Notes: a model not told the origin generated them from the sequence alone. Positions 1-27,091 are shown, counted from the stretch's first letter. The stretch is DNA of 64,000 nt from an uncultured bacterium (GCA_963749445.1 CAVVMJ010000007.1:9971-73970); one strand, 5' to 3'. Made by a program: numbers and translations.

Positions 1-573
1 TAAACTTTCCAAAAAATCCCTGGCGTACCACTGCCGCAAATTCCAGAGATCAACGAAAGTCTGCACAGGCGGCGTCAGTTGGCCGAAAACTTTCAGGCGC
101 GGATCCGCGGCCAGGATCGCCAGATTGGGGAAGTCGGACGAGGCCAAAGGGAAGCGCTTGATAATCTCCGGCAAAAAATTTTCGTCCGCGTAAACGTAAA
201 CGTCCGCGTAATCGGCCGGAGTTAAACGGTACTGCCGGACAAACGCGCTGAACGCGCCATAAATTACTCCGGGCGGCATTAATCCCTCTATATCCAGGGG
301 CGAGTTTACCGAAACCTTTGTCTGGTATATTATATCATTCTCCAATTTGCGGTTGCTGGCCCAGAGCAGCAAAAACTTTTCCCTGTCCCGAACCCTAAAA
401 TTCCTGCCGGTTATTTCAATTGCCCCAGCTCTTTTTGGCAAGGCCATGGCGTTATTAACGGTGGATAGCGAAAAACCCAAACGGCCCGCCAGTTCCTTTT
501 GCGTAAAAACATACTGTTTCTTTTGGAAACAATCGTTTAATATTTCTCTCCAGATTTGTTCCTTTTTGAGCAT
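1..573 (-). CDS. TrmB-like HTH transcriptional regulator (3' end runs off window; no stop seen)
   Basis: Minus-strand ORF in frame from ATG at 571-573 to position 1 with no stop triplets. Translation MLKKEQIWREILNDCFQKKQYVFTQKELAGRLGFSLSTVNNAMA... has a winged-HTH-like N-terminus resembling the two other TrmB-family ORFs in the window. Confidence 0.5.
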   Translation of the reverse strand, partial: MLKKEQIWREILNDCFQKKQYVFTQKELAGRLGFSLSTVNNAMALPKRAGAIEITGRNFRVRDREKFLLLWASNRKLENDIIYQTKVSVNSPLDIEGLMPPGVIYGAFSAFVRQYRLTPADYADVYVYADENFLPEIIKRFPLASSDFPNLAILAADPRLKVFGQLTPPVQTFVDLWNLRQWYARDFLESL

Positions 574-816
574 ATCTGATATGTTTCGGTTTACTAACTA
601 TTTGATTAACCTCTTTTCTATTATATTAGAAACATAATAATTGGTCAAGTTACAAAATAATATGTGTAGTTTTTATGAGTGATATTATATTATTTGCCTT
701 ATATAAAAGGCTTTATTATTTAAATAGTTGATAAAAACCTTATTTTGTGCTATCATTGATGGTTAATTTCATAAAAGTACTTGTTTTGCTTGTGGTGGGC
801 AAAACCCTGTAAATTC

Positions 817-850
817 ATGCCCCCAAAGTCTTTTTGGGGGTTTTTGTTTC
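817..850 (+). terminator. intrinsic terminator-like hairpin (GCCCCCAAAGTCTTTTTGGGGG followed by T-run)
   Basis: Perfect 8-bp GC stem followed by TTTTTGTTT on the plus strand. Confidence 0.4.
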
Positions 851-1068
851 TCCCAAACAATTCGTCTGGCATTACCACCACTAATGCTTAATGAATTGCC
901 GGGTAGAAACACAAGGAGTTATTTCCGATAAATCCGACTTTCTGATTTATCTGACTGATTCCGAATTTACCGGGTTTTCCTCTCCATAAGTCGTCCCGAC
1001 TTAATACATTCAATTTATACGGGACATTATGAGAGGGCGATGGCAATATCGCAGCGGCAATTTTATAA

Positions 1069-1797
1069 TTGAGCCGCAGACGTGCACGGCGTTTCCCGTG
1101 CGGGCACCTTAACAATCGAGAAAACCAAATGTTAAAACTAACGTCTGACCCGGTTCGGACCATGGGTCCGAACAATCACTCGGTTGTGATTGGCGTTACG
1201 ATTATCGGCGACAGAAGAACGCCGGTGGTGAACGCAGACGTGCTCCTAAAGCTGGACTCACGAGATTGGGGCACACGAAAGACAAACCGTAATGGCCAAA
1301 TCGAACCGACGGAAGTGACTGCCATCCCCGATGGCAGTTTCAATGGCAACGGCAAACTGACGGTGGAGGCAATCCGCGTCGGCGCACCGGGGGATATGGA
1401 TCGCAAGATTATTGACATCCCAATGCCTCAACCCAAACCCGAACCCGCGGCAGTGGAAAGCATTGCCGTGACCAACGCGACTGAAGGCATTGTCTTGTGC
1501 TCCGGTTTCAACGGAACGCTCGAGATCGCCTTAGGGTTTGAGCAGGGAAAGAAGTCTCGCCCTGTCAGACTGAAAGTTTCGGCCGACCACAGGGTAGATT
1601 TTGCCAACGATAAAACGGGCACGCCTTTAGGCGCGAACGTAAAGTCGTGCGCGGCAACTACTTCGGCAGACGGAGTGCTCCGTCTGCGCGTCAACTTCCT
1701 GGCCTGCGGTCGGGACGAAGTCGAGATCAAAGTATCGGTCCCGAACTCGTCCAAAACTGCTACCGCCAAACTCAAATACAAAATGTTCGAAACTTAG
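1069..1797 (+). CDS. hypothetical protein, first gene of the GC-rich island (true start probably ATG 1129 or 1162)
   Basis: 242-aa ORF at about 60% GC against AT-rich flanks. No recognisable domain. The first codon of the ORF is TTG. Confidence 0.45.
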   Translation: MSRRRARRFPCGHLNNRENQMLKLTSDPVRTMGPNNHSVVIGVTIIGDRRTPVVNADVLLKLDSRDWGTRKTNRNGQIEPTEVTAIPDGSFNGNGKLTVEAIRVGAPGDMDRKIIDIPMPQPKPEPAAVESIAVTNATEGIVLCSGFNGTLEIALGFEQGKKSRPVRLKVSADHRVDFANDKTGTPLGANVKSCAATTSADGVLRLRVNFLACGRDEVEIKVSVPNSSKTATAKLKYKMFET

Positions 1798-1810
1798 GAG
1801 AGATAGACTG

Positions 1811-2788
1811 ATGACTCGTCACACACCCACATCCGCTGCACCGCCGCCGGCACCACCCGTGGCAACCGCACCGGCACCCCTCGCACCCGCAGTCATCCCG
1901 GCACAGGCACCCCTCGCACCCGCCACAATTCCGATCCCGGGAGGACACCACCTTAGCGACAAAACTTTGGTGACACTCGACATCCTCGTTGGAATCATCA
2001 CCGCTCTGTTCGGCCACGAAATCGGCCGCCAAGCGGGAAAGTGGTTCCAGGGAGCCAAACGCGGCTTGCAACAGATCGGTACGCCCGGGACAGCAACCGG
2101 GGTCACCATCTCAGGCAACGCACCCGCTCACATCGACCCCACCATCCATAGCGCCCTCCTAGGCATTGGACCGTGGGACGAAGCCGCCACTGGCATGACG
2201 CTGGGTGCTGCTTTCCGGCGGGCATTTCAACGCTTGTTGGAAGCAACCGGCACGCCAATGGAAGCGCCCATCCGCGCCGCGCTTGCCCAGCTGGAACAGA
2301 CTGTCGGCTTCATCGCCAACAAGCTCAACCAGCACCAGCGCGACTTCCTCCGCGAAGTCGTCGGCAAGCTCAAGACGGCTGAACTCCAGAACCTCTTCTG
2401 GCAGGACTTGGTCCTCGCCAGCAAGGACGAAACCGGTTTCATAAACTTTATGAAGGCAATGGGGATCGTCCACGAGCCGAACGAACTCACCCAGGAACTC
2501 GCGATTGCTATTGCCTATGGTTTCGAGCAGGCGAATGTGATCCGGGTCCAAATGGTGACCACGCTCACAGTTCGCTACGACGCCCGTTCCGACGCTGCCA
2601 GACAGCGCTGGTTCACCGCACATGGGCAACTCGCTCAAGGGCAGCCCGTTCAACAAAACGCGACGCCGTTCTGGCGCCGCCGCACGATATGGCTCGTCAT
2701 TGGACTGGCCATTCTGGCAGTGGCTCTATTTCTAGGCCTGCCCCACATCTACCTCAACCTTCGAAATTGGGAATGGAGTTGGAAATGA
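1811..2788 (+). CDS. hypothetical Pro/Ala-rich protein with C-terminal transmembrane anchor
   Basis: GGAG 8 nt upstream of the ATG. N-terminal PAPP/APLAP repeats and a C-terminal hydrophobic helix (IWLVIGLAILAVALFLGL). Confidence 0.55.
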   Translation: MTRHTPTSAAPPPAPPVATAPAPLAPAVIPAQAPLAPATIPIPGGHHLSDKTLVTLDILVGIITALFGHEIGRQAGKWFQGAKRGLQQIGTPGTATGVTISGNAPAHIDPTIHSALLGIGPWDEAATGMTLGAAFRRAFQRLLEATGTPMEAPIRAALAQLEQTVGFIANKLNQHQRDFLREVVGKLKTAELQNLFWQDLVLASKDETGFINFMKAMGIVHEPNELTQELAIAIAYGFEQANVIRVQMVTTLTVRYDARSDAARQRWFTAHGQLAQGQPVQQNATPFWRRRTIWLVIGLAILAVALFLGLPHIYLNLRNWEWSWK

Positions 2789-4197
2789 CGAATCTAGGAA
2801 GAATCGGAAGGTCGATCGGCACAATGGTGTCCGGTCTGGAAGCGAGGATTTTGGGCTGGATTAGCGCTCATGTCTCGCTAACGCCGCGCGCCTTCGGCAC
2901 GTGGCTTGACGAACACAATTTCATCCGGCTGGAAAACGGCGCGCCTGTCACGGACTACGCCGGTTTCTTCCGCTGGACACGCAACTCGCTCCTGTCCCTG
3001 ATGGCACTGACTTTATTGCTCGAAGCCTACACCATAGTCATCGGGACATTCAACAACACCCCGCTCGGCCTCGGCATAAGCTTAGGTTTCGGTGTGGCAG
3101 TGTTCGGCATCGCGTCGGTGGTCTGGATTTGGAGGACCATCGGCCGCGTCAACGAAGGCTTGGCCTGGATTTTCACTCTGGCCACTGCCACCCTTGCCCT
3201 AATTGGCTTAGGGACTCCGACTTACCAGTACTACGCCGCGGGGAACCTCGCCAAACTTTCGGCAAAAGATATCCAAAATCTGATCGCGGCAGGCATTCCG
3301 CGAATCTGGGCTATGGCGGGCTTTTGCCTGCTCAGCCTGATCGTTCTTCCGCTTACCTGGATGACCACTCTGGGGCCCGCCCTGCTGTCCCTGGCTTTCG
3401 CCAAGACGGCAGAAGGTCTGGAAACGGCGTGGACAGAAATCCGGAAAATATTCTCGCACGATAGGGAAGTAGCGGAAGCCGCTGCGGAAAACCTCCGCAA
3501 GCGGACAGAAACACAGACCGGCCTGCTCATGCTCACATGGGCGATCCTGGCGCTGTTTACTCTCTCTATTATTCTCTCGTCCACGGTCTGGGGGCCTTTC
3601 GGCGGCTTGGTCATCGGTATGACCGCAATCGTGCCGGTATGGATACGACGGTGGAATATGTTCTTGGGAACTTTCTTAACCAAGGCACTCTACGGCGTAG
3701 CCACAGGAGGGCTGATCTTTATCTGCTTCCTGTACGGCCTTTCACTCTCGGCCTTGATGCTGATTCCCGACCAAATTTCGCTCAACGCACTGCTAGTAAT
3801 CAAGTGGGCCAGCTTCCTAATCGGTCTCGCTTCGGCAGTTGGAGTGTTGTTTACCTCCACCACGGCCAGCAAACAGAACGAACTGGAAGCCGGCATGGGG
3901 GAAATTCAGCCCTACACCAGAAAGGTCACGGGTTTCGGGACTGATGGGCAGCCGATTTTTGAAGCTGTTCACCCCAAACCGACGTCCTTCGCCTGGGTCA
4001 AGCCCACGGTCTTCGGTGCTGTTGTCATCGCTCTGGTTGCCTATGTGCACTACAACGGCAACCCGCTTTCCGGCACCAGCCCGCTCAAGCTGGTCGCTTA
4101 CACAATGGTTGTCGGCTTGATCCTTATTCTCTTTGGGATCTTTTCCGGCGGCAAGACGCAAGCCACCCCTACACAGGAGGTGCGCCATGACCACTAG
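2785..4197 (+). CDS. hypothetical polytopic membrane protein (at least 10 predicted TM helices)
   Basis: ATGA start/stop overlap with the upstream gene and GGAG upstream. Long hydrophobic segments throughout. The longer track ORF from 2689 would overlap the previous gene by 100 nt. Confidence 0.5.
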   Translation: MTNLGRIGRSIGTMVSGLEARILGWISAHVSLTPRAFGTWLDEHNFIRLENGAPVTDYAGFFRWTRNSLLSLMALTLLLEAYTIVIGTFNNTPLGLGISLGFGVAVFGIASVVWIWRTIGRVNEGLAWIFTLATATLALIGLGTPTYQYYAAGNLAKLSAKDIQNLIAAGIPRIWAMAGFCLLSLIVLPLTWMTTLGPALLSLAFAKTAEGLETAWTEIRKIFSHDREVAEAAAENLRKRTETQTGLLMLTWAILALFTLSIILSSTVWGPFGGLVIGMTAIVPVWIRRWNMFLGTFLTKALYGVATGGLIFICFLYGLSLSALMLIPDQISLNALLVIKWASFLIGLASAVGVLFTSTTASKQNELEAGMGEIQPYTRKVTGFGTDGQPIFEAVHPKPTSFAWVKPTVFGAVVIALVAYVHYNGNPLSGTSPLKLVAYTMVVGLILILFGIFSGGKTQATPTQEVRHDH

Positions 4198-4771
4198 GAA
4201 AAAGTGCATCGTCATCGGCACTTTAATCGTCGGCGCAGCAGCCGCTGTGCTCCTCGGCTATTACGTAGGCATTGGCAAGTACGCGCCCAGCGAACAGGCG
4301 GCCTACAACCGCCTTCACGCGGCGAACAACTGGGAGTTTGAGGGGAAAACAAGCGATGTTGAAGACAAGCAAGTTCCCCTCGCCGACAAGGTTGCTCAAG
4401 TCAACGTCCTAGCCGTGCAAAAACGCACTCTGGACGCGCAAATCGGCCACCCGGAGCTGACCAACTGCCGGACGCAACCCGGCAAGGACAAGGACGGCAA
4501 GCCAATACTGGTGTCCGAGCCGTGCCCCGGCGGCGTCTCCGCGGCAATCTACAGGGGCAAAGAGGCCGTCATAACGGTCCAGCTCCTAACTTACAGCAAC
4601 GACGAACTCCCGCTCAATGTCGCACCGACCCTCGTCGGCGACGAGCAACTCGGTGGGACAGCAGTACCCCTGGGCAACAACCGGTTCCGCGTGTCGGGAC
4701 TGGTGTATGACCAGGAAAAAATCGCCGGCGGATACAAGATTCGCGTTACGCCGGAAGGAGGAGGAAACTAA
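4185..4771 (+). CDS. hypothetical membrane-anchored protein (N-terminal TM, extracytoplasmic domain)
   Basis: GGAGG upstream. The ATG overlaps the upstream stop by 11 nt. MTTRKKCIVIGTLIVGAAAAVLLGYYV signal-anchor. Confidence 0.5.
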
Positions 4772-5000
4772 TGAGAGACAGGATCCCGTGGCCTCGATCG
4801 ACAATTGACAGTAATGATTGCCCGACGAGGTGTAGGGAACCGACTTGGACAGGAGAGAAAAACAAATAATTAAGCAATTATTTCTCTCCCGTCCGTTTTA
4901 AAAGCCGTCATAGATTAACCTTATCATTCTCCCCCAAATCATGAGGAGATACCCCGCCGAAGGCGGAACAGAGAGGTTAAACTATGGCGGCTTTTAAATT

Positions 5001-5027
5001 GGCCACATTCCATTTTGGAATGTGGCC
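5001..5027. terminator. perfect 12-bp hairpin GGCCACATTCCA-TTTT-GGAATGTGGCC between convergent genes
   Basis: Palindrome seen directly. It lies between the end of the + island operon and the end of the - strand pilin-like gene. Confidence 0.45.
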
Positions 5028-5060
5028 ATCCCGAACGAAGTGAGGAATCTATTTAACTTT

Positions 5061-5765
5061 TTAATTAGTTGTCTGGGTTGTAGTGCCCCGCTGTAAAATG
5101 TCGGAGGTCGTTAAGGTGGAGGTAATAATCGTAACAATGGAGTAAGCCAAAATTACCACTACCAAACCGACAATCGCGTTAATCAAAGCTTTTTTGCCTT
5201 TTTCCGACTGCTCCTCATTGCCCGCGGACGTAATGTACCAAAACCCGCCGACAATTAACGCGACCACCGCTATCAATCCGGAAAGAATCAATAAATACTT
5301 TATAACGACAAAAATCAAATCCACCAAGGTTCCCGCGCCTGCCGGGCTGCCGGCAGTATAAGTATTTGCCGGTACGCAAAAGCCGTTGATTTGCACCAGT
5401 CGGCTGTCGCCGCAAGGGCCACTCACCGTGGAAGGGATGGTTGGATTTAAGTTCACTCCTCCGCTATTTTGATACGCAGTACAAACCGGATCGTTCGGGT
5501 AGCTGTTGCAACAAGCTAACCCGGTTAAGCCCGAAGAGGCGCAGTCAACTTGCTTTGGCCCGACAATTCCGCCGGCAACGCAGGCACTTCCTGAATAAGT
5601 GCATCCCACTGTATTTGCGCACTGGATCGGATCAGCAATACCGGTACAATTATCGGCTTTAGCCAACAAAGGCCCACATGCCAAAAAACTAAAGGCCAAA
5701 GCAAAAACTGCAAAAAACACAAGTCCTGTCAGTTTATCAAATTGCAATTTGCTATTTTTTTTCAT
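5061..5765 (-). CDS. secreted Cys-rich surface protein with C-terminal VirB2/TrbC-like two-helix pilin module (paralog 1)
   Basis: Signal peptide and 16 Cys in the ectodomain. C-terminal motif IVGGFWYITSAGNEEQSEKGKKALINAIVGLVVVILAYSIV is shared with five neighbouring ORFs. Confidence 0.6.
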   Translation of the reverse strand: MKKNSKLQFDKLTGLVFFAVFALAFSFLACGPLLAKADNCTGIADPIQCANTVGCTYSGSACVAGGIVGPKQVDCASSGLTGLACCNSYPNDPVCTAYQNSGGVNLNPTIPSTVSGPCGDSRLVQINGFCVPANTYTAGSPAGAGTLVDLIFVVIKYLLILSGLIAVVALIVGGFWYITSAGNEEQSEKGKKALINAIVGLVVVILAYSIVTIITSTLTTSDILQRGTTTQTTN

Positions 5766-5774
5766 CGCGAAAAT

Positions 5775-6173
5775 TTAAACCCCGAGCCCGCCGGTAATGG
5801 TATTTTCAATGACCGTAATAATTGTATAAGCCAAAATAATAATCACAATGCCGATAATGGCATTGATTAAAGTTTTTTTGCCTTTTTCCGACTGCTCCTC
5901 GTTGCCGGACGCGGTAATGTAATAGTACCCGCCGATAATAATGAACAGCACGGCAATGGCGCCGGCAAACAGCAGCATCAGCTTAATGACATCATAAATC
6001 AAATGCGGCAAATCCGGCTCCTGGGACAGCCCGCCGATGCCGAACAAATCCCTTAAACCGCCTATGCCGGTCAGCCCCTGGCCGACCGCGCTGGTCTGGG
6101 CAAAAACCATAGCCGGCAAAAATAGCAAAGCGGAAGATATCCAGGCAAATATTTTTTTGACTGTTTGTTTCAT
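5775..6173 (-). CDS. VirB2/TrbC-like pilin-family protein (paralog 2, minimal form)
   Basis: Signal peptide followed by IIGGYYYITASGNEEQSEKGKKTLINAIIGIVIIILAYTII. Confidence 0.6.
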   Translation of the reverse strand: MKQTVKKIFAWISSALLFLPAMVFAQTSAVGQGLTGIGGLRDLFGIGGLSQEPDLPHLIYDVIKLMLLFAGAIAVLFIIIGGYYYITASGNEEQSEKGKKTLINAIIGIVIIILAYTIITVIENTITGGLGV

Positions 6174-6214
6174 AAGATTGTGCTTCTAATTATTAAAAGT
6201 TAATTAAACACCAA

Positions 6215-6392
6215 TCAGAATGTCGGAATGTCGAATTAATCGGAGGGGTCATTTCCAAAATTTTTCCAATTTGTTATTAACCGATTAATTTGTTCAGAAA
6301 CTAAGACCAATCTTTATTGCCTGTATACGTCCAACTACCCGACCTCCGATATTCTGATTTATCCGATTATTCCGACTTCTGATTCCAAACTC
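6215..6392. repeat. MITE-like intergenic repeat module with about 17-bp terminal inverted repeats (AATCAGAATGTCGGAAT / ATTCCGACTTCTGATT)
   Basis: The internal 150 bp is homologous to 7947-8030 plus 8345-8470. Related fragments (GATTTATCCGA, ATTCCGAC) also occur at 930-990. Confidence 0.45.
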
Positions 6393-6548
6393 AGGGGCAG
6401 AACCAGTTCCGCCCGAGAGCCCGGAGCCGAAATTTTCGGCCGACCGTTTAGTGTCATTGCGAGGAGGCCGGGGCTTTGTCCGGCCGACGCGGCAATCCCT
6501 TCTTTTGATAAGATTGCTTCGGCTGCTACTGCAATGACACTAAATTTT

Positions 6549-6941
6549 TTAGCTGGATGACTTGGAAACCAAACCGGCCACCACGTTAACGATTACGTAG
6601 GACAAAAGAATAATGACAATACCGATAATGGCGTTAATGGCCGTGTTCTTGCCTTTTTCCGCGGTTTCCTCATTGCCGGCGGAGGTAATGTACCAGAAGC
6701 CGCCAATGATTAAGAACAACACGGCAATACCAAAGGCGATCCCTAGGAGCCAATTGATGATATTTTTAATCAACGCGTTAGCATCGGTAGTGCCGCAGTT
6801 TAATCCGGTTCCGGAGCAGTTAGGAGCGGTCAGCTGCGCCTGTCCAAAATGCAATGGGACAAACACAAAAATCGCCACCAACACCAGCTCAGCGACCACT
6901 AACCAATTGATTTTCTTGATTATTTGTTTCAAGCTGTTCAC
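6549..6941 (-). CDS. VirB2/TrbC-like pilin-family protein (paralog 3)
   Basis: Signal peptide, CSGTGLNCG ectodomain, then IIGGFWYITSAGNEETAEKGKNTAINAIIGIVIILLSYVIV. Confidence 0.6.
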   Translation of the reverse strand: MNSLKQIIKKINWLVVAELVLVAIFVFVPLHFGQAQLTAPNCSGTGLNCGTTDANALIKNIINWLLGIAFGIAVLFLIIGGFWYITSAGNEETAEKGKNTAINAIIGIVIILLSYVIVNVVAGLVSKSSS

Positions 6942-7061
6942 CCCCTCTCGTTTCCCTTTCCCTCTCCCTCGGGGAGAGGGCAGGGTGAGGGTTAATTTGC
7001 TGACATTATTATACTACGATTCCTAATTTTTGGCCATCTCTATCTTTTTGGCACACGGTTG

Positions 7062-7946
7062 TCATCTCGGGCTCGGCCCAGGCGTAGGATAGGTTAAATT
7101 CTTATTGGTGGCTTGGCCGCAAACAAAAGTTTGCACCTCCTGCCCGGGCTGTATGGGTTTCTGGGAAGCCATGGCCACGGCCCAGCCGCTTGCGTTTTGC
7201 GTATAGTTTGATTGCATATAATCCGCGCCGTCAACTTTTACGGTAAAAGAGATAGGACTTACATCGCCACATATCATCGCAATCTGTGCCAATAAATCTC
7301 TTTCGCCAGTAGAAATTGTGGAATTCACTAACAGGCCGGGATTTTTGGGCGTAATGACAATATTGTCCCCCAAATAATTTTTATTGGTGCTCCTAGCATT
7401 ACTGACATCCTGTAAACTGATGCCCGCGAACATCGGGTTGGAATAAGCATTGCCTCCTTGCGTACCCGCGACCGCCGGATTGGTGTTGGTATTAGCCGAC
7501 GGATTAGTTACTGCCGGGGTATTGCCATTGCCGGTACTGCCCCCGGTCAACCCGCTGGTTAGCAAATTAACCGTGATGCGGACTATGGCATAAGCCATAA
7601 TAATTACGACCAAACCGATAATCGCGCTGGTAATGGCCTTGCGGCCTTTTTCGGATTGCTCCTCGTTGCCCGCGGCCGTCAGGTACCAAAAACCGCCCAA
7701 AATTATGAACACTACGGCCACCAAGGCGGCAAATTCCAGCAATAACTGGATAACATTGCCCACGGCCTGCTGGGGCGTACATAGTTTGGGGAGGCCTTCA
7801 ATGGTATTTACCGGTTTGCCGTTAACGGTAATTTGAAACTGGCCAAAAAACTTGTTGCAATCAAATTGCGCCGACGCCGGCATGGCCAACAGCCAGCTGA
7901 AAAGGATTATCACCAGAAAAAATTGAAGCTTATGCGTTTTCTTCAT
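7062..7946 (-). CDS. VirB2/TrbC-like pilin-family protein with 170-aa C-terminal extension (paralog 4)
   Basis: Signal peptide. The conserved module ILGGFWYLTAAGNEEQSEKGRKAITSAIIGLVVIIMAYAIV is in the N-terminal half, followed by a Gly/Asn/Thr-rich linker and a C-terminal domain. Confidence 0.55.
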   Translation of the reverse strand: MKKTHKLQFFLVIILFSWLLAMPASAQFDCNKFFGQFQITVNGKPVNTIEGLPKLCTPQQAVGNVIQLLLEFAALVAVVFIILGGFWYLTAAGNEEQSEKGRKAITSAIIGLVVIIMAYAIVRITVNLLTSGLTGGSTGNGNTPAVTNPSANTNTNPAVAGTQGGNAYSNPMFAGISLQDVSNARSTNKNYLGDNIVITPKNPGLLVNSTISTGERDLLAQIAMICGDVSPISFTVKVDGADYMQSNYTQNASGWAVAMASQKPIQPGQEVQTFVCGQATNKNLTYPTPGPSPR

Positions 7947-7965
7947 AATTTTTCGGAAAATCGGA

Positions 7966-8307
7966 TTAATCGGAATTATCGGATCTGAAATTCTTCCAAT
8001 TGGTTATTAGTCGATTAATTTGCTTGGATACTATTTTATAGTGCTTGATTAGTGCTTCGCAGGTTTCGGGTTTAATATTCGGGAAACCAATGAGTTTAAT
8101 TTGTCTTAGATGGGTTATAACTTCATCCGAAGATCCCAACGCAATCCGCAAGTAACGCTTGAATTCTTTTTCCGAATTTCGTTTGGCAAAACCTTCGGTA
8201 ATTTGCGCCGGAACTCCTTTTGCCGCGCCCGTTAACTGGTCTTTTGTCCGAAACTCATTTTTTGGCAACAAATCTGCTAACCGGTAAATCGGCCTAATCA
8301 ACTTCAT
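7966..8307 (-). CDS. four-helix-bundle protein (23S rRNA IVS protein family)
   Basis: The sequence ...GAAKGVPAQITEGFAKRNSEKEFKRYLRIALGSSDEVITHLRQ... matches the four-helix-bundle family. The gene sits inside copy 2 of the repeat module. Confidence 0.55.
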   Translation of the reverse strand: MKLIRPIYRLADLLPKNEFRTKDQLTGAAKGVPAQITEGFAKRNSEKEFKRYLRIALGSSDEVITHLRQIKLIGFPNIKPETCEALIKHYKIVSKQINRLITNWKNFRSDNSD

Positions 8308-8394
8308 TGACCTTCTGATAAACCTCTAAATCCTCAACATCCTTTATCATAATTAAAAAATTAAGACCGGTTTTTATTGCCTATATCCATCCAA

Positions 8395-9978
8395 CTATCC
8401 GACCTCCGATTTATCCGACATTCCGACATTCCGACATTCCGACATTCCGACATTCCGATTTATCCGAATCATACTCGTACTCTGGCTGACGTTTTGGATT
8501 TGCGTCTGCAAAATATATTGGACAATGGCAATGATGCTAAAGGACAGCAAAGCAATGGCTAAACCCAAAATGGCCCAGGTGATGGTCTTGCGCGCGGCCG
8601 TGACCGCCTCTTCGTTGCCCTGGGACATGACGTAGCGGAAGCCACCGATGACTATAAAAGCCACGGACCACAAAGCAATGACGCCCAAAAAGGCGCGCAT
8701 TATCAACAGCAAAGTCGCAGTCAAAGAATCCACGGGCAGGGGGTTATATAAACAATTGTTGGCATCGGGACCGGTACAATTAGCGGTGGAAGGAGTGCCG
8801 GCGGCAGAACATGTCCCTCCCGTGGCGGCTGAACATATCTGCCCGGAACTGCAAGTCCCCTGCTGCCCGGGACCTCCGGTACAAGAAGCACCAGGCGCGA
8901 CAGCCGCGGTCGGACTTACAGTAATATTAAAAGTAGTCGGTCCAACCCCATTTAACGCTGTGGTTCCGTCAGCGGCCACCGGAGTCGCGACAATTGAATT
9001 AACGCCGCTAATATTAAAACCGGAGTTTGCGTCCAAGGTAAAATTTTGGCTCCATTGTTTTGAACTGTCAAGTTTTACATCTTGATTACCCGCGTGCACC
9101 AATAAAATGCCGCCACTGGGCATATTGGTGGCAGAAATTGTTATGGTAGTTCCGGGCGCATAAGTACTATTGGCCGCAGGCGGCGATAAAACAACCGTCG
9201 GCGCGTTACCACTTGCGCCTGTGGCCTGAGTTAAAGTATAAGTTTGATCATAAATTCCCTTGCCGCTACTATCAGTCAGGACAAATCTTAACTTGTTATC
9301 CCCATTGCTAATAAATCCATTTGTGGCATTTACCGCTATTTGGTTGCCGCCTGAGTATATTGCAACAAAGTGATTATTATCGTTGACATAAATGTTTCCC
9401 TGCGCACCGGGCGGAAAATCTGTATAAGTAATTTTTAAGGTATCGCCAATTTTAGCGGTAGGCGGTGAAACTGTAAAGTTAAACCCCTCTCCTAAAGGAT
9501 TATTAGAAACATTTAGCTGTTTTCCCCAATTTTTTGTATCTCCCAAGTCACCCAAACTTGAATGAACATCCAAATAGTAAGGAAAAATGTAATCTGACCC
9601 TGACTTGGTAACATCACTCCAACGGGAAAAATTTGATAAATTAAAAGGGCAGTCAATATTAACATTGTTAGGAACAGGCGGGCTGACCTGGCACCTGGCC
9701 AAATACCAAGGGCTACCACTGATAGGGGCAATAAAATCAAACTCCATGATATTATTGGCACTACAGCCGTTTGTATTAACTATGGTATTAAATTTTGCCG
9801 AATCGCCTTTATAAATTCTGGTTGGAACTGCCTCCATAGAGGTAATTTGCACCTGGCAAATTCCTGCGGCTATTGCAGATTTTATGAATCCACGCCCAAA
9901 AACCCCGGCCAGCATCAATAAAATTATGACGCTGCTTTTTAGTGCGCTTAATATTTTATTGTACTTGTTCTGCGTCAT
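8395..9978 (-). CDS. large secreted surface protein with C-terminal VirB2/TrbC-like pilin module (paralog 5). The 3' end reads through the octamer repeat
   Basis: Signal peptide, about 400-aa beta-rich ectodomain, Cys/Gly-rich linker, then FIVIGGFRYVMSQGNEEAVTAARKTITWAILGLAIALLSFSII. The last 30 or so aa are encoded by the repeat module. Confidence 0.55.
   Translation of the reverse strand: MTQNKYNKILSALKSSVIILLMLAGVFGRGFIKSAIAAGICQVQITSMEAVPTRIYKGDSAKFNTIVNTNGCSANNIMEFDFIAPISGSPWYLARCQVSPPVPNNVNIDCPFNLSNFSRWSDVTKSGSDYIFPYYLDVHSSLGDLGDTKNWGKQLNVSNNPLGEGFNFTVSPPTAKIGDTLKITYTDFPPGAQGNIYVNDNNHFVAIYSGGNQIAVNATNGFISNGDNKLRFVLTDSSGKGIYDQTYTLTQATGASGNAPTVVLSPPAANSTYAPGTTITISATNMPSGGILLVHAGNQDVKLDSSKQWSQNFTLDANSGFNISGVNSIVATPVAADGTTALNGVGPTTFNITVSPTAAVAPGASCTGGPGQQGTCSSGQICSAATGGTCSAAGTPSTANCTGPDANNCLYNPLPVDSLTATLLLIMRAFLGVIALWSVAFIVIGGFRYVMSQGNEEAVTAARKTITWAILGLAIALLSFSIIAIVQYILQTQIQNVSQSTSMIRINRNVGMSECRNVGMSDKSEVG
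8415..8454. repeat. octanucleotide microsatellite (CCGACATT)x5
   Basis: Five perfect tandem units. Translated on the minus strand they form the C-terminal tail (RNVGMSECRNVGMS) of ORF 8395..9978. Confidence 0.9.
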
Positions 9979-9990
9979 ACTTTTTGATTT

Positions 9991-10485
9991 TTACTTCCCT
10001 GCCGGCGCGATGCCTTCTTCCACGTTATAGGAATTTGGGACGCAGGTATAACTGCTCGGGTTGGTCAAAGTAATGTAAGTCCACGGACTGGCAAAATCAA
10101 TTTTGCATTTGGACATTAATAGAATATTAACTGCGGTATTGACGAACATATACGCGGCCACGACCACAAAAAATCCTATGAATACCTGGGTTAACGCTCC
10201 CTTGTGTTTGGTAATGTCCTCCTCGTTGCCGCTGCTCGCCACCAGCCAAAAAGAATGTTCAACAATCTTGTAAACCGCGTAAAGCCCGGCCATGGCTATC
10301 AGCCAGTTGGTCACCCGCGCCACCCCGTAAAAAGCGTCCAAAACTCCGCAGGGATGATTATCCGTCGGCCCGCTGCCGCCGCAGGGAACTAGTCCAGCGG
10401 CATGGACGAAAAATGGCATAGAAAAAGCTATTGTTATTGTTAAGATTACCGCAACTAAAAGCCTTTTTTGTTTCAAGATAATCAT
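9991..10485 (-). CDS. VirB2/TrbC-like pilin-family protein (paralog 6, divergent)
   Basis: Signal peptide, CGGSGPTDNHPCG, then LVASSGNEEDITKHKGALTQVFIGFFVVVAAYMFV. Confidence 0.5.
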   Translation of the reverse strand: MIILKQKRLLVAVILTITIAFSMPFFVHAAGLVPCGGSGPTDNHPCGVLDAFYGVARVTNWLIAMAGLYAVYKIVEHSFWLVASSGNEEDITKHKGALTQVFIGFFVVVAAYMFVNTAVNILLMSKCKIDFASPWTYITLTNPSSYTCVPNSYNVEEGIAPAGK

Positions 10486-10540
10486 TTTTCTACAATAACT
10501 CTACCACATTTTTGGCAAATTTTCAATTTTTGTCGCTTTG

Positions 10541-10622
10541 TTGAAATTGCGAGGGCGTGCATCCGACCGAAGCAATCCCCAAAAAATAACCGGATTGCTC
10601 CGGCCACCCTCGCAATTTCATA
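10541..10622. repeat. palindromic repeat element, copy A (GAAATTGCGAGGG...CCCTCGCAATTTC)
   Basis: Terminal inverted arms plus an inner GAAGCAATCC/GGATTGCT pair. Three longer copies lie at 28142, 43438 and 48535. Confidence 0.6.
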
Positions 10623-10727
10623 AAAAACACAACTTTGCAAAAACAACAACTAGTTTCCCAATTTCCAATTTTTCTGTCGTTTTGGCTTTGCATTGGAAAT
10701 TAGTAATTGGGTATTGGAAATTCGCCA

Positions 10728-12024
10728 TCACTGCCCCGCAGTGATTGCGGCCGCTTGTTGTTCGGCTTGACTAAGCGAATCCTGCGCGCTCAACCCGTTT
10801 AAAATTACGTTATCAATCGCCTTGCCGAAAATGTTGTCCATCTTGGCCTGGTCCGGGCGGTAAAAAGATTTAGCGGTAAGGTTGGCGTTGGCAAACACGC
10901 CGATGTCCGGGTCCGGAATTTGCAGCTCAATAAGGTCGCGGCGCGAAGACGGCACTTTGTTTTGCGCGTAATATTGGTCCAGGCTGTCCTTGCTCGTTAA
11001 AAATTTTACCAAATCCCAGGCTGCGGCCAGTTCTTACTCTGTTTGCTCACCACCTCTCCCCAGTAGTTGGCAAAATTCACGGATGGGTTATTCAAATCCG
11101 GCTGCGGCACGCCGGCCACGTCAAAATTCAAATTGGGAGATTTTTGTAAGATGGTGGCGCGACTATAGGAATAGCTGTACAAAAACGCGGCGCGGCCGTT
11201 GGCAAAAGCGTCAATGGAATAATCGCTTTGGGCGTTCCAGTTGTAATTAGGGCTGGAAGGATTGGCAAAAGATGTGTAAAAACTCAAAGCACTGACTCCG
11301 GGATTGGTAAAATTGCCGTTTTTCTGAACCGGGTCGGCAAAAGTCGGCTGCATGCCGGTATAAGGCATGGTGCCCTGCTGCAGCATCATCAAATACAAAA
11401 TATCCACCGCGCGATTGACATTGGCGTTAGTACCTAATGCTACGCCGCTTTGCAAAAAATAACCGTGGCTGTCCTGCCGCTTGATTTTCTGCACATCCGT
11501 TGCCAGCTCGCTCCAGGTCTTCGGCGGCGTGGCAATCCCCGCGCTGCCCATCATATCCTTGTTATAATACAGCGCCAAAGAATCCACGGACATGGCCGCG
11601 CCGTAAATTTTTCCTGGCTGGTAAAATCGTTGACCACCGCGTCCACAAAGGTATCCTTAAAATCCTTCAAAGTAAAAATGGAAGCCGGCGAAGGCGTGGC
11701 TTTGTCCAAATACTGCGGCAGCCAGGCGTTGTTGATGGAAAAAATATCCGGCCCGTTGCCTGCGGCCAAAGCGTTCAGCAAATCCTGCTGGTAAGTGTTA
11801 ATGTCTTTTTTGGTGTAGACGATGGTAATATTGGGATTTTTTTGGCGGTAAGCGTCGAGCAGCGGCTGCAGGCTTTGGCTGTCCATAAACGGATTCCACA
11901 TGGTCAGGGTAATATTCCGCTGAACCGTAGTTGTCCCTCCCCCGCCGCATCCCGCCGCAAGCAAACTAAGGCCGATGGCGGATAAAAGCAATTTTGGTTT
12001 GAAAAATTTTCTTTTTGGTTTCAT
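10728..12024 (-). pseudogene. ABC transporter substrate-binding lipoprotein (sugar-binding family) disrupted by two frameshifts
   Basis: Three consecutive minus-strand ORFs (11551..12024, 11006..11593, 10728..11012) translate to one SBP with a lipobox LAAGC. One frameshift is in the AAAAATTT run near 11588 and one is near 11010. Confidence 0.55.
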
Positions 12025-12123
12025 ATGCCGCGGATATTCACGCGGATTACTACGCGGATCTACCGCTGACAGCCGCGCCTTCCGCGTCTGATCTGCGTTG
12101 CTATCCGCATTTAATCCGCAATT

Positions 12124-15638: not shown

Positions 15639-15656
15639 TTATCAAAACTCTCGGGC

Positions 15657-18799: not shown

Positions 18800-18809
18800 A
18801 ATTGTTACT

Positions 18810-19547
18810 TTAGGCAGGTAAACTGATTTGCCAAAGCGCTTCAAATAAGTAACCCAAATTCTGGTTCAGCTCCGCGCTTTCAACAATCATGCCAAAATTT
18901 TCTTTTGTTGAAGAAATAATCCCAACTTTATCGTCATAGATATATAAGGTCATGGCAAAAATCATATTTGCTGGGGCGTAACGCAATAACCTTAATTCAG
19001 AAGGGTCGGTCGGCCAAGTTTCTTTTACATCTTTTTGCTTGCTTCTAACAACCCTCAAAGCATAACCTGATTTAATTCTCCGCGCAACATATTCTTTCAT
19101 AAATCTTTCGCCGGGGATTTTAAATAAGTCAACTATCGATAACACGCCTCTTATATTTTTGTCCGGGGTTGAAATTGTATCTTCTAAAACCGTTTTAATT
19201 CCCTCCACTCCTTCGTAAAAAGAAGTTTTCGGCTTAGACTTTAAAGTATTGTAAACAGACTTAAGTTCCGGCAACAAGCTGTCAAAAGTTCGTTGTTTTT
19301 CGGCCAAATTCCGTTTAATTTTTTCCGGGTCATTGGCGATATAATACCGGACTTTATGTTTTTCATATGCCCCCACTAATCCTTCTTCCGCGAGTTTTTC
19401 CAAAAGATCGTAGGCAGTCGGCCTGGCCACCTTGGCTCTCAAAGCAATCTCGTGGGCCTTGGCCTGCCCCATTTCCAAAAGCGCCAAATAAACCCGCGCT
19501 TTTTTATCGTCCAAACCGAATTCCTTTAAGTCTTCTTTTAATGCCAT
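18810..19547 (-). CDS. TrmB-family transcriptional regulator
   Basis: MALKEDLKEFGLDDKKARVYLALLEMGQAKAHEIALRAKVARPTAYDLLEKLAEEGLV winged-HTH plus TrmB-like C-domain. The track ORF extends to 19685. Confidence 0.65.
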   Translation of the reverse strand: MALKEDLKEFGLDDKKARVYLALLEMGQAKAHEIALRAKVARPTAYDLLEKLAEEGLVGAYEKHKVRYYIANDPEKIKRNLAEKQRTFDSLLPELKSVYNTLKSKPKTSFYEGVEGIKTVLEDTISTPDKNIRGVLSIVDLFKIPGERFMKEYVARRIKSGYALRVVRSKQKDVKETWPTDPSELRLLRYAPANMIFAMTLYIYDDKVGIISSTKENFGMIVESAELNQNLGYLFEALWQISLPA

Positions 19548-19569
19548 AAAATTGCGTTTACGATGCTTT

Positions 19570-19589
19570 TTTGATATTTGTCGAAACTT
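19570..19589. promoter_or_regulatory. perfect palindrome TGTCGAAACTTTTCGACA upstream of the TrmB-family gene (candidate operator)
   Basis: 18-bp palindrome 23 bp upstream of ATG 19547, in the divergent intergenic region shared with the 19719 gene. Confidence 0.35.
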
Positions 19590-19718
19590 TTCGACTACAT
19601 AAATATTATATAATAATGCCTTATTTATGTCAACTATTGATAATAAAACTGTTATTAGTCGAATATTATTAACATCGTACGACAAAACTGTTATGCTTGC
19701 AGATTATAAGGAGGAAGT

Positions 19719-20102
19719 ATGCGCTTTGAATCCCAACAGACTACACACGGTCTACCGACAGTTGCCATCGACGACTTCGAAAAGCTCGGCAAAGGAGAGC
19801 TTCTCTGGTTTTTCCTTTTACGGATACAACGCCGCTGGAGACCATGGACTAACCGACGTCTTATGAGAGTTAGCTCAGACAATGGTGTGGTGTTCGTCAA
19901 CAACTTTCTTAACAGATTGCCGAAAGAACTGATTTGCTCCGGGGGTGAGGGAACCCACGGTCTGATCTGCAAAGGTGATGACGGCAAAATAAACGTGCTC
20001 TTGGGCTCTTGGGGGCCAGAACTTTCACTCCCCCTTGCGAAACAGGCTGTTCAGTTGCTGTCCGAAGCCGGCCTACCAGCCAAAATCTTCGGAAAAGAAT
20101 AG
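19719..20102 (+). CDS. hypothetical protein (GC-richer, strong SD AAGGAGG)
   Basis: ATAAGGAGGAAGT-ATG. 127-aa ORF with no recognisable domain, divergent from the TrmB-family gene. Confidence 0.45.
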   Translation: MRFESQQTTHGLPTVAIDDFEKLGKGELLWFFLLRIQRRWRPWTNRRLMRVSSDNGVVFVNNFLNRLPKELICSGGEGTHGLICKGDDGKINVLLGSWGPELSLPLAKQAVQLLSEAGLPAKIFGKE

Positions 20103-20214
20103 CCTCCAATCCCTGCCGTCTGCCACTAAAAAACGCAAAACCGCCCCGGGCAACCTGTCCTCCGTAGCTTTATGCGGAGGAGGGATGCGAAGGGCGGTTG
20201 TTTTTTTATACATT

Positions 20215-20478
20215 TTACGGTTTATATTCCAGCCCAATCTTGGAGCCGGCTTTTGTAATCCAATTTTCTGTGGTCGTGACTCTGCTGTTTACAACCAAAA
20301 TTTCATCGGCATTTTTCTTTGTGCCAACCGCAAAGGATTCCACGGACGCTTGGAGGTTATTAAAATCCTTGCGCTGACCTTCAAACTTTTCATCCATTTC
20401 CAGCTTATCGTAAAATAACTGTTTGTTGGCCTCAATCACCTTATTCACAATTTTAGTTGTGTCTTCGTCGGTAATCAT
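20215..20478 (-). CDS. hypothetical protein
   Basis: 87-aa ORF, charged/helical, no domain recognised. Confidence 0.3.
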   Translation of the reverse strand: MITDEDTTKIVNKVIEANKQLFYDKLEMDEKFEGQRKDFNNLQASVESFAVGTKKNADEILVVNSRVTTTENWITKAGSKIGLEYKP

Positions 20479-20728
20479 ATACGCGGCTATTTATTTTTTG
20501 GTTTTTCGATTAAATGATGACTATTTAAAAATCTTATTACGGGCTTGCCGCAATTCAAACAAAAAGTTAAACTAGACAGTTTGCCCGGGGGAGCGACATT
20601 AACTTCCTTGTTATAATCTTTAATTTGCTTTTTACAAATATCACATTTTGTAACATGCATATGATTTTATTTTAAGGCTTGGGATAAAATCATAAACCCA
20701 AGAAAACTTTCCGTCAACTGTGGAAAAC

Positions 20729-21832: not shown

Positions 21833-22014
21833 ATTCTAATTTCTAAAGCCTAAAATCTAAACAATATTCAAATCCCAAATTTTCAAAGTTTAAACTGTTT
21901 GATATTTTGGGTTTTAGAGTTTGTTTAAAATTTAGCGTTTCGATTTTAGATTTTAATGATTACTTATATAGTATACAATCGTTCACCATATGTCAAATAA
22001 TCCCTGTGGATAAT

Positions 22015-22968: not shown

Positions 22969-22974
22969 AAATTA

Positions 22975-23070
22975 ATTGAACAAGATTGACATGATTGATC
23001 AAGATTGACAAGATTGCCATTCCCAAATCATGCTCAATCTTTTAATTCTTTTAAATCTTGTCAATCTCTT
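22975..23070. repeat. direct and inverted repeats of CAAGATTGAC(A) in the intergenic region
   Basis: caagattgacatgattgatcaagattgacaagattgccat ... atcttgtcaatctc lies upstream of the rodZ-like start. Confidence 0.5.
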
Positions 23071-25276: not shown

Positions 25277-25406
25277 CTTTGTTGTTTCCCTTCTCCCCCT
25301 CTGGGGGAGATGTCCCGCCTTTGGCGGGACAGAGAGGGTGCATTAAATAAAATTAATCGATTATAATTTCTCGCCTCCCTATTTTACCATTTTTTTACCC
25401 GCCTTA

Positions 25407-26168
25407 CTAGCCTAAACTTTTCCAAATTAACTGGTACATCACCTTAACCACTTCCACTACCTCTTTGCTCTTTATTACCGCGGCAAAAGGCTTGTTTTCA
25501 AGATTCAAGATGGCCAGTTTGTCTTCATAAATAATAAAACCCGTTCCCACGCTTATTACCCCGGGCAAAATTTTCATTTCCCGCCACGGGGTTTTGGTTT
25601 TTTGCCATTCTTTCCCCAAAGCGAAAACCCCGGAATCCGTAATTATATAAATTTTTGGCCGGTCAGGATTGCCGCGCAAAGCCCAGGCCTCATTTAGGAT
25701 ATCCATTCTTTTTGATTTAACCAGTTTATCCAAAATTTTCGCGCCTGAGCCAAAAAAAAGCCAGGAAGTCGGGCACGCCGATATTTCCAAAGCGATATTT
25801 TTTAAGCCTTCCACCCCGGAATAAAAACTAACCTTTGGCTCTTCCGCGTATTGTTTAGGAAATTTAATAAGCCCGGGTAAAATACTTTCCAATAAAATTT
25901 CCGCATCAACAACCTGCCGCCGCATCCGCTTGGTCAGCTTTCCCAGCTTTTGCGGCTTTTCGGCTTCAAACAGCCTTTTCTTTCCGGCAAAACTTTCTAT
26001 AATCAACCCTTGTTTAATAAGATTCTCCAACGCCAAATAAACCGTCGGCCGCTTTATGCCTGACTGCTCCGATATTTGCCATGCCGATGAAGGCCCCAAA
26101 CTCAAAGCCGCCAAATAAACTTTGGCTTCGTGCTCACTTAACCCCAATTTTTGCAGTTCTTCTTCCAT
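25407..26168 (-). CDS. TrmB-family transcriptional regulator
   Basis: MEEELQKLGLSEHEAKVYLAALSLGPSSAWQISEQSGIKRPTVYLALENLIKQGLI plus TrmB C-domain. The track ORF extends to 26228. Confidence 0.65.
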   Translation of the reverse strand: MEEELQKLGLSEHEAKVYLAALSLGPSSAWQISEQSGIKRPTVYLALENLIKQGLIIESFAGKKRLFEAEKPQKLGKLTKRMRRQVVDAEILLESILPGLIKFPKQYAEEPKVSFYSGVEGLKNIALEISACPTSWLFFGSGAKILDKLVKSKRMDILNEAWALRGNPDRPKIYIITDSGVFALGKEWQKTKTPWREMKILPGVISVGTGFIIYEDKLAILNLENKPFAAVIKSKEVVEVVKVMYQLIWKSLG

Positions 26169-26329
26169 ATATATTTTGTCATCAAATTCTGACAACAATA
26201 ATATAACATAATCATTCAATGTTTGCAAGCAAGTTAATCCAATTTATATGAATTAGTCATAAAATATTGATCATAAATTCAATCGTATGGAATAATGACT
26301 AGTTGTAAACCTTAAGGAGGAAGAAAAAA

Positions 26330-27091
26330 ATGGAAATAAAGGAAATCTGCGAAGCGTACTCCGCGAGTGATGACGTCGCGTTGTTGAAAGCTTTGAACGA
26401 ATTCAGCCTTCGGCTGTCTTATTCTTGCCATTCGATTGGGCCAGCCGCCACGGCAATGCAGTTGCGCGAAACTCATCTGCTTGGGATCTTAAACAAGACC
26501 GCGGCTGAGGCAGAAGATAAGCCGGGGGGGTCTTTAGCTTTGGTAGTTGGACGCCTCTCCGCTTACATCCATTTTGTTGGACTAATCGCTGACCGTGAGC
26601 GTGTAGATTCGGTGGTCGCCCAGCTGTCTGATCTCCCTAACGCCGACTTGACTAACTTTTTCCTCAGAAATAGCTTCTGCCAAGGAGGACTGCGTCGTGA
26701 ACAGTTAGTTTACGCAGCCGCACGCTTTATCAAAGTCAAGGACGTTTTGGCGAGGTCTCGGTTCAGGCAACTTTTACGGATGGAGATGATTGAGTCATTC
26801 AAGGTGTACGAGACGCTGGAGGCGCAAGCGGAGGATCGGGCAGTGTTGCATTACAAGATAACCCATCTTGGCGAGGCAGTCCTGGAGCGCCTCATGCACC
26901 CGCACGAACTTGCGCTGTGGTTTGTAGATGAAGCGGCGTTTAATCCAGAACTGCGCGCCGCGATGAGGAACGAGATTAAACACACGTGGCCACTGGAAGA
27001 CCTGACGGTGCCTGACGCGGAACTACGCGCCATAACCGCAAGGCGGGATGAGATTAAACGCAAATGGTCATCAGATGAGCCGTCCGTCTGA
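26330..27091 (+). CDS. hypothetical protein (GC-richer, strong SD AAGGAGG)
   Basis: TTAAGGAGGAAGAAAAAA-ATG. 253 aa with no recognisable domain, divergent from the TrmB-family gene. Confidence 0.45.
   Translation: MEIKEICEAYSASDDVALLKALNEFSLRLSYSCHSIGPAATAMQLRETHLLGILNKTAAEAEDKPGGSLALVVGRLSAYIHFVGLIADRERVDSVVAQLSDLPNADLTNFFLRNSFCQGGLRREQLVYAAARFIKVKDVLARSRFRQLLRMEMIESFKVYETLEAQAEDRAVLHYKITHLGEAVLERLMHPHELALWFVDEAAFNPELRAAMRNEIKHTWPLEDLTVPDAELRAITARRDEIKRKWSSDEPSV

Follow-up and report, generated by a model that had tools for sequence, protein, structure and literature searches.

Paralogous TrmB-family regulators with their own predicted operators face variable divergent genes in an uncultured bacterium

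Almost nothing is known about transcriptional control in the Patescibacteria (Candidate Phyla Radiation). A stretch of 64,000 nt from an uncultured bacterium (GCA_963749445.1, CAVVMJ010000007.1:9971-73970; the whole stretch is called the window here) raises the question in a concrete form: what do its TrmB-like regulators, which stand back to back with genes of no assigned function, act on? An initial annotation of the window had listed three such regulators, each divergently paired with a GC-richer gene, and had proposed that they silence acquired genes or that regulator and cargo move together. We find that two of them do belong to the TrmB family and are paralogs of each other; we call them TrmB2 and TrmB3. 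Judging from the sequence features described below, they probably are local repressors, each with its own operator and each acting on itself and on the divergent gene.

The two regulator genes are the following:

18810–19547, minus strand: TrmB2, 245 amino acids (aa), TrmB family, with an N-terminal winged helix, a helical linker and a short C-terminal domain
25407–26168, minus strand: TrmB3, 253 aa, TrmB family, upstream of ftsK-rodZ-recA

Both match PF01978 above its cut-off of 25.6 bits (54.6 and 61.0 bits, respectively), so that this part of the initial annotation holds. The third regulator that it listed, an open reading frame (ORF) at 1–573, is a different winged-helix protein, and a profile hidden Markov model (HMM) of the TrmB paralogs recognizes exactly two TrmB genes in the 64 kb. 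TrmB2 and TrmB3 are 24% identical over their full length (pairwise E 1e-25), and neither gene has a Shine-Dalgarno sequence. Against the PDB, the paralog profile finds the P. furiosus TrmB chain 3QPH_A (E 1e-6), with query residues 4–169 aligned to chain residues 11–175, beyond the helix-turn-helix (HTH). Similarly, the NCBIfam model TransRegTrmBHalo aligns to residues 8–175 of TrmB2. The proteins do not fall into the sugar-sensing TrmB/TrmBL1 type: the NCBIfam equivalogs score 15–42 bits against cut-offs of 500–650, and in Pfam at E ≤ 0.01 only HTH families are matched, with no sugar-binding subdomain recognized. Judged by these profiles, TrmB2 and TrmB3 belong by descent to the TrmB family, as short bacterial proteins in which the sugar-sensing part is missing.

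Among the genomes of a species-level collection, three of Candidatus Doudnabacteria are closest to the window. TrmB3 is 82–86% identical in these genomes, a conservation equal to that of RecA (84–85%), and FtsK is 67–75% identical. For comparison we used the contigs encoding homologs of the partner genes, the loci of the three Candidatus Doudnabacteria genomes and twenty metagenome loci with TrmB2 relatives at 28–80% protein identity; these loci carry L numbers below. The surroundings of L013–L015 were compared within ±6 kb. Orthologs of TrmB2 in L004, L009 and L016 are 76–82% identical.

The divergent ORFs facing the two regulators exist as first annotated, each preceded by AAGGAGG:

19719–20102, plus strand: cargo2, 127 aa, with AAGGAGG at 19708–19714
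26330–27091, plus strand: cargo3, 253 aa, with AAGGAGG at 26314–26320

The initial annotation had named poor conservation of these ORFs as a point on which the pairing could fail, but both partners are real and have homologs in relatives. For cargo2 we found two full-length homologs with 67% identity, a ratio of nonsynonymous to synonymous substitution rates (dN/dS) of 0.26–0.40 and a bias of changes to third codon positions. In public gene calls, two 79-aa ORFs (19627–19866 and 19863–20102; also in L001/L008; P0010) take the place of cargo2, and the upstream one has stop codons in orthologs. Supported by the orthologs and the dN/dS values, the sequence at 19719–20102 is best described as a single 127-aa gene, and the public gene call can be corrected from two genes to one. 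A distant homolog of 126 aa is present in L016 (hhalign E 8e-5), where it is 26% identical while TrmB2 is 80% identical. The cargo2 protein gave no match in Pfam, NCBIfam, PADLOC or PHROGs, and its AlphaFold model is unusable, with a predicted local distance difference test (pLDDT) score of 39. No relatedness between cargo2 and cargo3 was found. The cargo3 family comprises 7 clusters at 90% identity, with 25 representatives among 1.84 billion proteins, and a metagenome scan with the cargo3 alignment returned no matches. Its members are 34–79% identical where TrmB3 is 82–86% identical. Both partners are thus lineage-restricted, with 3 homolog clusters for cargo2 and 7 for cargo3.

The spacers between regulator and partner show a common layout, with a dyad (O1) just past the promoter of the regulator and a half-degenerate repeat of it (O2) on the -35 element of the opposite promoter. 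The predicted elements of module 2 (TrmB2 and cargo2) are:

19605–19633, minus strand: TrmB2 promoter, TTGACA, 17 nt, TATAAT (12/12 consensus)
19580–19595, no strand: operator O1, GTCGAAA-CT-TTTCGAC, with the core GTCG-N8-CGAC
19658–19673, no strand: candidate operator O2, GTCGAATATTATTAAC, 78 bp from O1
19669–19697, plus strand: cargo2 promoter, TTAACA, 17 nt, TATGCT, TG-extended

Those of module 3 (TrmB3 and cargo3) are:

26200–26228, minus strand: TrmB3 promoter, TTGCAA, 17 nt, TATATT, TG-extended
26178–26193, no strand: operator O1, GTCATCAAATTCTGAC, with the core GTCA-N8-TGAC, extended to TTGTCA-N8-TGACAA
26256–26271, no strand: operator O2, GTCATAAAATATTGAT, 78 bp from O1
26267–26296, plus strand: cargo3 promoter, TTGATC, 18 nt, AATAAT, TG-extended

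In module 2, O1 begins 9 nt past the -10 element and covers the predicted transcription start of TrmB2. An 18-bp perfect palindrome had been reported from this spacer; the dyad is indeed there, built as 7+2+7, but it is not perfect. The window reads TGTCGAAACTTTTCGACT at 19579–19596, one mismatch from the reported 18-mer, which does not occur in exact form. The left half-site of O2 is intact, and its right half fuses with the -35 element of the cargo2 promoter (TTAACA, 19669–19674). The TrmB2 promoter is kept in L004 and L009 and recognizable in L016–L034, and the cargo2 promoter block is kept in L004 and L009. In module 3, O1 lies directly downstream of the -10 element of the TrmB3 promoter, an arrangement that had not been annotated before, and O2 overlaps the -35 element of the cargo3 promoter (TTGATC, 26267–26272), outside both predicted transcripts. 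The -10 block of the TrmB3 promoter, AATATA(A/G)CA, is invariant across 6 aligned loci, and the cargo3 promoter is kept in L002, L004, L011 and L012.

A single exact copy of each dyad is present in the 64 kb, where 0.33–0.36 copies would be expected. Since occurrence alone is not significant, the evidence for the dyads rests on their position and conservation. The exact GTCG-N8-CGAC core is found in 13 of 14 non-redundant loci of the TrmB2 clade, at most 100 nt from the ATG, compared with a mean of 0.0005 loci in shuffled sequences. These loci span 80–28% protein identity among the TrmB2 relatives, and their consensus is GTCGGAA-NN-TTCCGAC. In L004 both arms of the dyad are changed with the symmetry kept (GTCGGAA..TTCCGAC), while a one-sided change in L009 breaks the pairing. 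Nine loci of the TrmB3 clade (L002, L004, L005/6, L011, L013, L014, L015, L016c and L012) carry both dyads, although O1 of L012 has a degenerate left half. The distance between O1 and O2 is exactly 78 bp in all eight TrmB3-clade loci where both dyads are detected and 78–79 bp in seven loci of the TrmB2 clade. The DNA between the two dyads is poorly conserved, and yet the spacing is common to clades that are only 24% identical. The spacers show a column identity of 70–85%, against 41–67% protein identity of the partners; they are more conserved than the partner gene and under selection.

The dyads are also specific to their paralog. In L004 and L016, where both paralogs are present, a dyad of either type accompanies its own regulator and is absent from the remainder of the 7–13 kb loci. 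The initial annotation had recommended a search for palindromes upstream of other TrmB genes; they were found, and each paralog has its own sequence. Further paralogs carry AGCCGAT-TT-ATCGGCT or GTCC-N7-GGAC in similar geometry. Full-length homologs with 37–41% identity in Cupriavidus and Azospirillum (Proteobacteria) likewise stand back to back with operons, and near-dyads occupy the corresponding position. The paralogs thus display diverged half-sites (GTCG vs GTCA) on an unchanged scaffold. As to additional regulon sites within the window, dyads with one mismatch elsewhere fall inside genes and look like chance occurrences. The dyads persist in L014 and L015, where TrmB3 but not cargo3 is present, which indicates that the binder of the module 3 sites is TrmB3 and not cargo3.

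From this arrangement we infer that the TrmB proteins bind the dyads and that the outcome is repression rather than activation. A regulator dimer on O1 would occlude its own start site and lead to autorepression, and a dimer on O2 would occlude the -35 element of the divergent promoter, so that the partner would be repressed as well. The fixed distance between O1 and O2 suggests one joint complex. A signal sensed by the short C-terminal domain, presumably a ligand, would release both promoters. This would be an ordinary kind of local gene switch, yet one that has not been described for these little-known bacteria, and it yields concrete predicted operators for TrmB2 and TrmB3 as well as for an entire clade of short TrmB-like proteins from bacteria.

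Several points weigh against such a role. Operator binding and the effect on expression are predictions from sequence, and the promoters are consensus matches, the rules for which may differ in these bacteria. A ligand-binding domain was not recognized in TrmB2 or TrmB3, with PF11495 going undetected, and archaeal TrmB exceeds both proteins by about 90 aa (338–349 aa in the NCBIfam models vs 245–253 aa). The right half of O2 in module 2 is weak (TAAC, not CGAC). A distance of 78 bp corresponds to 7.4 helical turns, which makes simple cooperativity in phase not obvious. Finally, TrmB3 is as conserved as RecA despite a dispensable divergent partner, and there may be further TrmB3 targets.

The partner is dispensable in the sense that it changes from genome to genome. 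Across Candidatus Doudnabacteria we observed the conserved order MGDG-synthase, hsp20, a variable slot, TrmB3, ftsK, rodZ and recA. TrmB3 stays in place while the gene behind the divergent promoter differs:

window, L002, L004 and L013: cargo3
L005/6, L011 and L012: an unrelated small ORF inserted ahead of cargo3
L014: a 198-aa protein without assigned function
L015: a small membrane protein, a CxxC protein and HicAB

The partners of the TrmB2 clade are equally varied and include cargo2, radical SAM enzymes, a haem-oxygenase-like protein, receiver-like proteins (with a Pfam Response_reg match only in the L027 copy, below threshold) and uncharacterized proteins. The repeated pairing of a regulator with a divergent gene is therefore real and more general than initially annotated, as relatives carry one to three modules in tandem. 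Between hsp20 and ftsK, modules are found singly or as tandem arrays, the latter in L004, L016 and L028. The conserved unit is a cassette of a regulator, two promoters and two operators, into which a fast-evolving or replaced divergent gene is plugged, and at this place in the chromosome lineage-specific genes come and go while the switch in front of them is kept. What is unusual about it are the paralog-specific operators on a scaffold of 78–79 bp, the turnover of the partners and a regulator as conserved as RecA. More tentatively, the short TrmB-like proteins (in Patescibacteria and, at 37–41% identity, in Proteobacteria) might form a widespread, uncharacterized branch of independent repressor/operator pairs on one ancient cassette geometry, with O1 at the regulator start and O2 78–79 bp away on the opposite -35 element. 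In Candidatus Doudnabacteria the cassettes would have duplicated into arrays between hsp20 and ftsK and would serve there for docking fast-evolving genes, whether newly arisen or exchanged, which thereby come under existing control. We regard this wider proposal as possible but doubtful.

In the slot beside TrmB3 we also noticed HicAB-type or other small toxin-antitoxin-like pairs (L004 4739–4984, L015 4654–5167, L014 4634–5121). A CxxC...CxxC protein recurs in the slot as well (minus strand; 226 aa at L013 2426–3106 and 100 aa at L015 5332–5634), and the 226-aa protein has no Pfam match.

Could regulator and partner form a mobile two-gene module, either similar to addiction or toxin-antitoxin systems or self-transposing? 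The position of module 2 differs between genomes: the window has it between recA and an exonuclease gene, it adjoins ftsK in L004 and hsp20 in L009, and the recA/exonuclease junction of L013 and L015 lacks it. The DNA homology of module 2 between genomes ends within about 15 nt of the two gene ends (18822–20119), and tandem arrays and neighbouring HicAB pairs would also be in keeping with mobility. However, the borders of module 2 show no transposase, integrase, terminal repeats or target duplications. Viral and phage scans were empty, there were no close plasmid copies, and PADLOC and PHROGs gave nothing beyond generic HTH similarity, so that no mobile, toxin-antitoxin or defence module is recognizable. 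In L017 and L019 a TrmB2-type regulator is paired with genes other than cargo2, and TrmB3 stays put. In addition, all contexts are within the neighbourhood from hsp20 to the exonuclease gene, and local rearrangement explains the pattern equally well. We therefore consider a mobile module unlikely. The earlier suggestion that regulator and cargo move together applies in part to module 2 with its differing contexts, but not to module 3, where the regulator is fixed and the partner changes.

The other original suggestion was that the TrmB paralogs silence horizontally acquired genes, which would be marked by a higher GC content. The partners are in fact GC-richer than their own regulators (cargo2 50.5% vs TrmB2 40.2%; cargo3 53.0% vs TrmB3 43.6%), but this is not a mark of foreign origin. 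Over 65 ORFs of the window, the GC content of genes averages 0.478 (standard deviation 0.059), with extremes of 0.33 and about 0.60. On this scale cargo2 and cargo3 have z-scores of +0.46 and +0.88, compared with -1.28 for TrmB2 and -0.72 for TrmB3, and the z-scores of cargo2 and cargo3 for GC at third codon positions (GC3) are -0.13 and +0.46. Since the GC content of the partners is that of core genes (recA 0.528, ftsK 0.529, rodZ 0.532) and the regulators, not their partners, are the compositionally low ones, a contrast within a pair cannot be taken as a sign of foreign origin, given how variable gene GC is in one genome. There are features that would suit acquired genes: the partners are lineage-restricted, with the few homolog clusters given above, they evolve fast relative to the regulators, and in some genomes they are swapped for unrelated genes. 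On the other hand, their GC and GC3 do not deviate, cargo3 is syntenic across genomes (L002, L005, L006 and L013), and relatives are absent from the viral, phage and defence collections. Known silencers of foreign DNA bind AT-tracts. The operators predicted here are specific promoter dyads and not AT-rich tracts. A silencing function therefore seems quite improbable, and the original claim is not borne out for cargo2 and cargo3.

A clearer compositional outlier than the partner ORFs is found elsewhere in the window. Three ORFs on the minus strand at 51463–54311 have its lowest GC content, 0.33–0.39 (z -1.5 to -2.5; GC3 z about -2.3), and no Pfam match.

A further alternative concerns module 3, which might be a two-repressor switch in which cargo3 and TrmB3, both acting on the spacer between them, shut each other off like CI and Cro. 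The idea arises from the predicted fold of cargo3. Its AlphaFold model (pLDDT 71 overall and 75–90 over residues 100–190) consists of a helical N-domain and a winged helix, and the top Foldseek hits are nearly all regulators of the MarR/PadR type, among them AdcR, PecS, MexR, ZitR, MepR and LmrR, although none is significant (E 0.012–0.06, TM-score 0.25–0.55). The sequence pattern fits a helix, helix, recognition helix and beta-wing. Members of the cargo3 family have winged-helix matches in Pfam that are all below threshold, and a sequence profile search of the PDB gave no matches. Based on the model, cargo3 is a probable winged-helix protein, MarR-like over approximately residues 105–190. It differs from MarR/PadR proteins in an extra helical N-domain of 100 residues and a conserved C-terminal motif, EIK.TWP. 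One source labels a cargo3 homolog as 'predicted transcriptional regulator', and a spacer with two operators and back-to-back promoters would suit such a switch. Against it stand the weakness of the fold matches (E 0.01–0.05, with no Pfam match at threshold), the full conservation of the operators where cargo3 is missing (L014 and L015) or set apart by an inserted ORF (L005, L011 and L012), and the lack of a third conserved motif for a second binder in the aligned module 3 spacers. The chances of mutual repression by the two proteins thus appear slim.

It is highly improbable that O1 works at the RNA level, as a hairpin in the 5' leader of the regulator that affects stability or translation, and not as a DNA site. 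O1 does lie within the predicted leader, modest hairpins are predicted for it (-6.7 and -7.2 kcal/mol), a point that also counts somewhat against the reading as DNA sites, and the two-arm change in L004 preserves pairing. On the other side, the one-sided change in L009 breaks pairing, the conserved bases are the outer half-sites around a loop fixed at 8, a pattern typical of dimer recognition, and O2 repeats the half-site at a fixed 78–79 bp, overlapping the divergent -35 element outside both predicted transcripts, where it cannot act as RNA.

Autoregulating local repressors with DNA operators, the explanation that we prefer, can be compared with several known systems. The archaeal TrmB and TrmBL1 proteins of Pyrococcus, Thermococcus and Halobacterium share the N-terminal TrmB winged helix with TrmB2 and TrmB3, and they remain homologous past it, across the linker and as far as the first part of the effector domain (3QPH 11–175). 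Halobacterium TrmB recognizes an inverted palindromic motif (PMC2710871), which parallels the dyads predicted here, and at the time of that study, in 2009, no bacterial TrmB orthologs had been identified (PMC2710871). Unlike the archaeal proteins, TrmB2 and TrmB3 are bacterial and shorter, without a detected sugar-binding subdomain or sugar genes nearby, and their predicted regulon is one local spacer and not a global set. No paper that names both TrmB and either the Candidate Phyla Radiation or Patescibacteria came up in full-text literature searches.

In length and domain content, a winged helix with a truncated effector domain, the two proteins resemble TrmBL2 from Thermococcales, a chromatin-like global repressor of about 264 aa without a sugar-binding subdomain. 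Nevertheless, the NCBIfam model NF041141 reaches 18.6 bits against a cut-off of 530, covering the HTH only, and the paralog-specific dyads argue for site-specific binding and not for coating of DNA. In how it would work, the cassette is a classical divergent arrangement of repressor and target such as TetR/tetA, where regulator and target are divergent with overlapping promoters, and palindromic operators give simultaneous autorepression and repression of the target. The protein families are unrelated, the operators here are 78–79 bp apart and not adjacent, and the target gene is not fixed.

The regulators also have neighbours on their other side. The stop codon of TrmB2 lies 12 nt ahead of the ATG (18798) of a 770-aa gene with a DEDDh exonuclease domain, and the two may be co-transcribed. 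For TrmB3, a single operon with ftsK-rodZ-recA was considered as well. This was weakened by a TG-extended -10 element (TGGTAAAAT / TGGTAGAAT) directly after the TrmB3 stop (25370–25400, minus strand), which is kept in four of five aligned genomes, with copies in the aligned parts of L013, L015 and L005 but not in L002. Because this conserved element adjoins the TrmB3 stop, ftsK is probably driven by its own promoter. GC-rich hairpins (CATTCCGGCCTCCGAGCCGGAATC) are found between the TrmB3 start codon and O1 in L002 (918–945), L011 (299–326) and L012 (962–988), not in the window, and similar ones fill the ftsK leader (window 25277–25370). They may represent a small dispersed palindromic element. 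Downstream of recA and before module 2, the minus strand at 20215–20660 encodes a zinc-ribbon-like ORF of 57 aa with two CxxC motifs and an ORF of 87 aa, both without a Pfam match, and a compound hairpin with a T-run at 20138–20208 resembles a two-way terminator.

The region around the remaining regulator, here called HTH1, contains the following features:

1–573, minus strand: HTH1, a winged-helix protein truncated by the start of the window
728–841, plus strand: a promoter-like site (TTGATA-17-TATCAT, TG-extended) with a terminator about 65 nt later
1129–4771, plus strand: a GC-rich block of four co-directional genes, mostly for membrane proteins, with 54–60% GC, at the top of the range in the window

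HTH1 has no PF01978 match at E ≤ 0.01; its best match is HTH_Crp_2 with 27.3 bits (cut-off 27). NCBIfam gave none, nor did the paralog HMM at E ≤ 1, and hhalign assigned a probability of 2.7% to a TrmB relationship. A palindrome, TTTCTATTATATTAGAAA, at 614–631 overlaps the -10 element of the predicted HTH1 promoter (TTGACC-17-TATAAT, 648–620) and may be the operator of HTH1 itself. The initial annotation had this gene facing the GC-rich island, but it does not do so directly, as the 555-bp gap holds the promoter-like site and a strong intrinsic terminator (GCCCCCAAAG...TTTGGGGGT followed by a T-run), both on the plus strand. Together they delimit a candidate short transcript, about 80 nt long, for which the sole Rfam match is below threshold (NsiR1, 24.8 bits vs 39).

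The genes of the GC-rich block have no family matches in Pfam, NCBIfam, PADLOC or PHROGs. An rRNA or other structured RNA as cause of the high GC content was discarded, since Rfam found tRNAs only, as in the window as a whole. Neither a function of the island nor a link to HTH1 could be shown. The gene order isl1-isl2-isl3 recurs in L038 and isl2-isl3 in L039, both short contigs (GC 0.57 and 0.56, respectively), with protein identities of 34–50%.

Further along, many paralogs of the PF18895 T4SS-pilin family are encoded in the window, in addition to recA, rodZ, ftsK, hsp20 and the MGDG-synthase-like gene. Five of these paralogs are arrayed on the minus strand at 5061–10485, with a gene for a 23S-rRNA intervening-sequence protein (PF05635, 7966–8307) embedded among them. 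Two overlapping ORFs (11006–12024, minus strand) correspond to one SBP_bac_1 solute-binding protein, the 195-aa ORF to its C-terminal half and the 157-aa ORF to its N-terminal half; the split gene is a frameshifted pseudogene or an assembly error.

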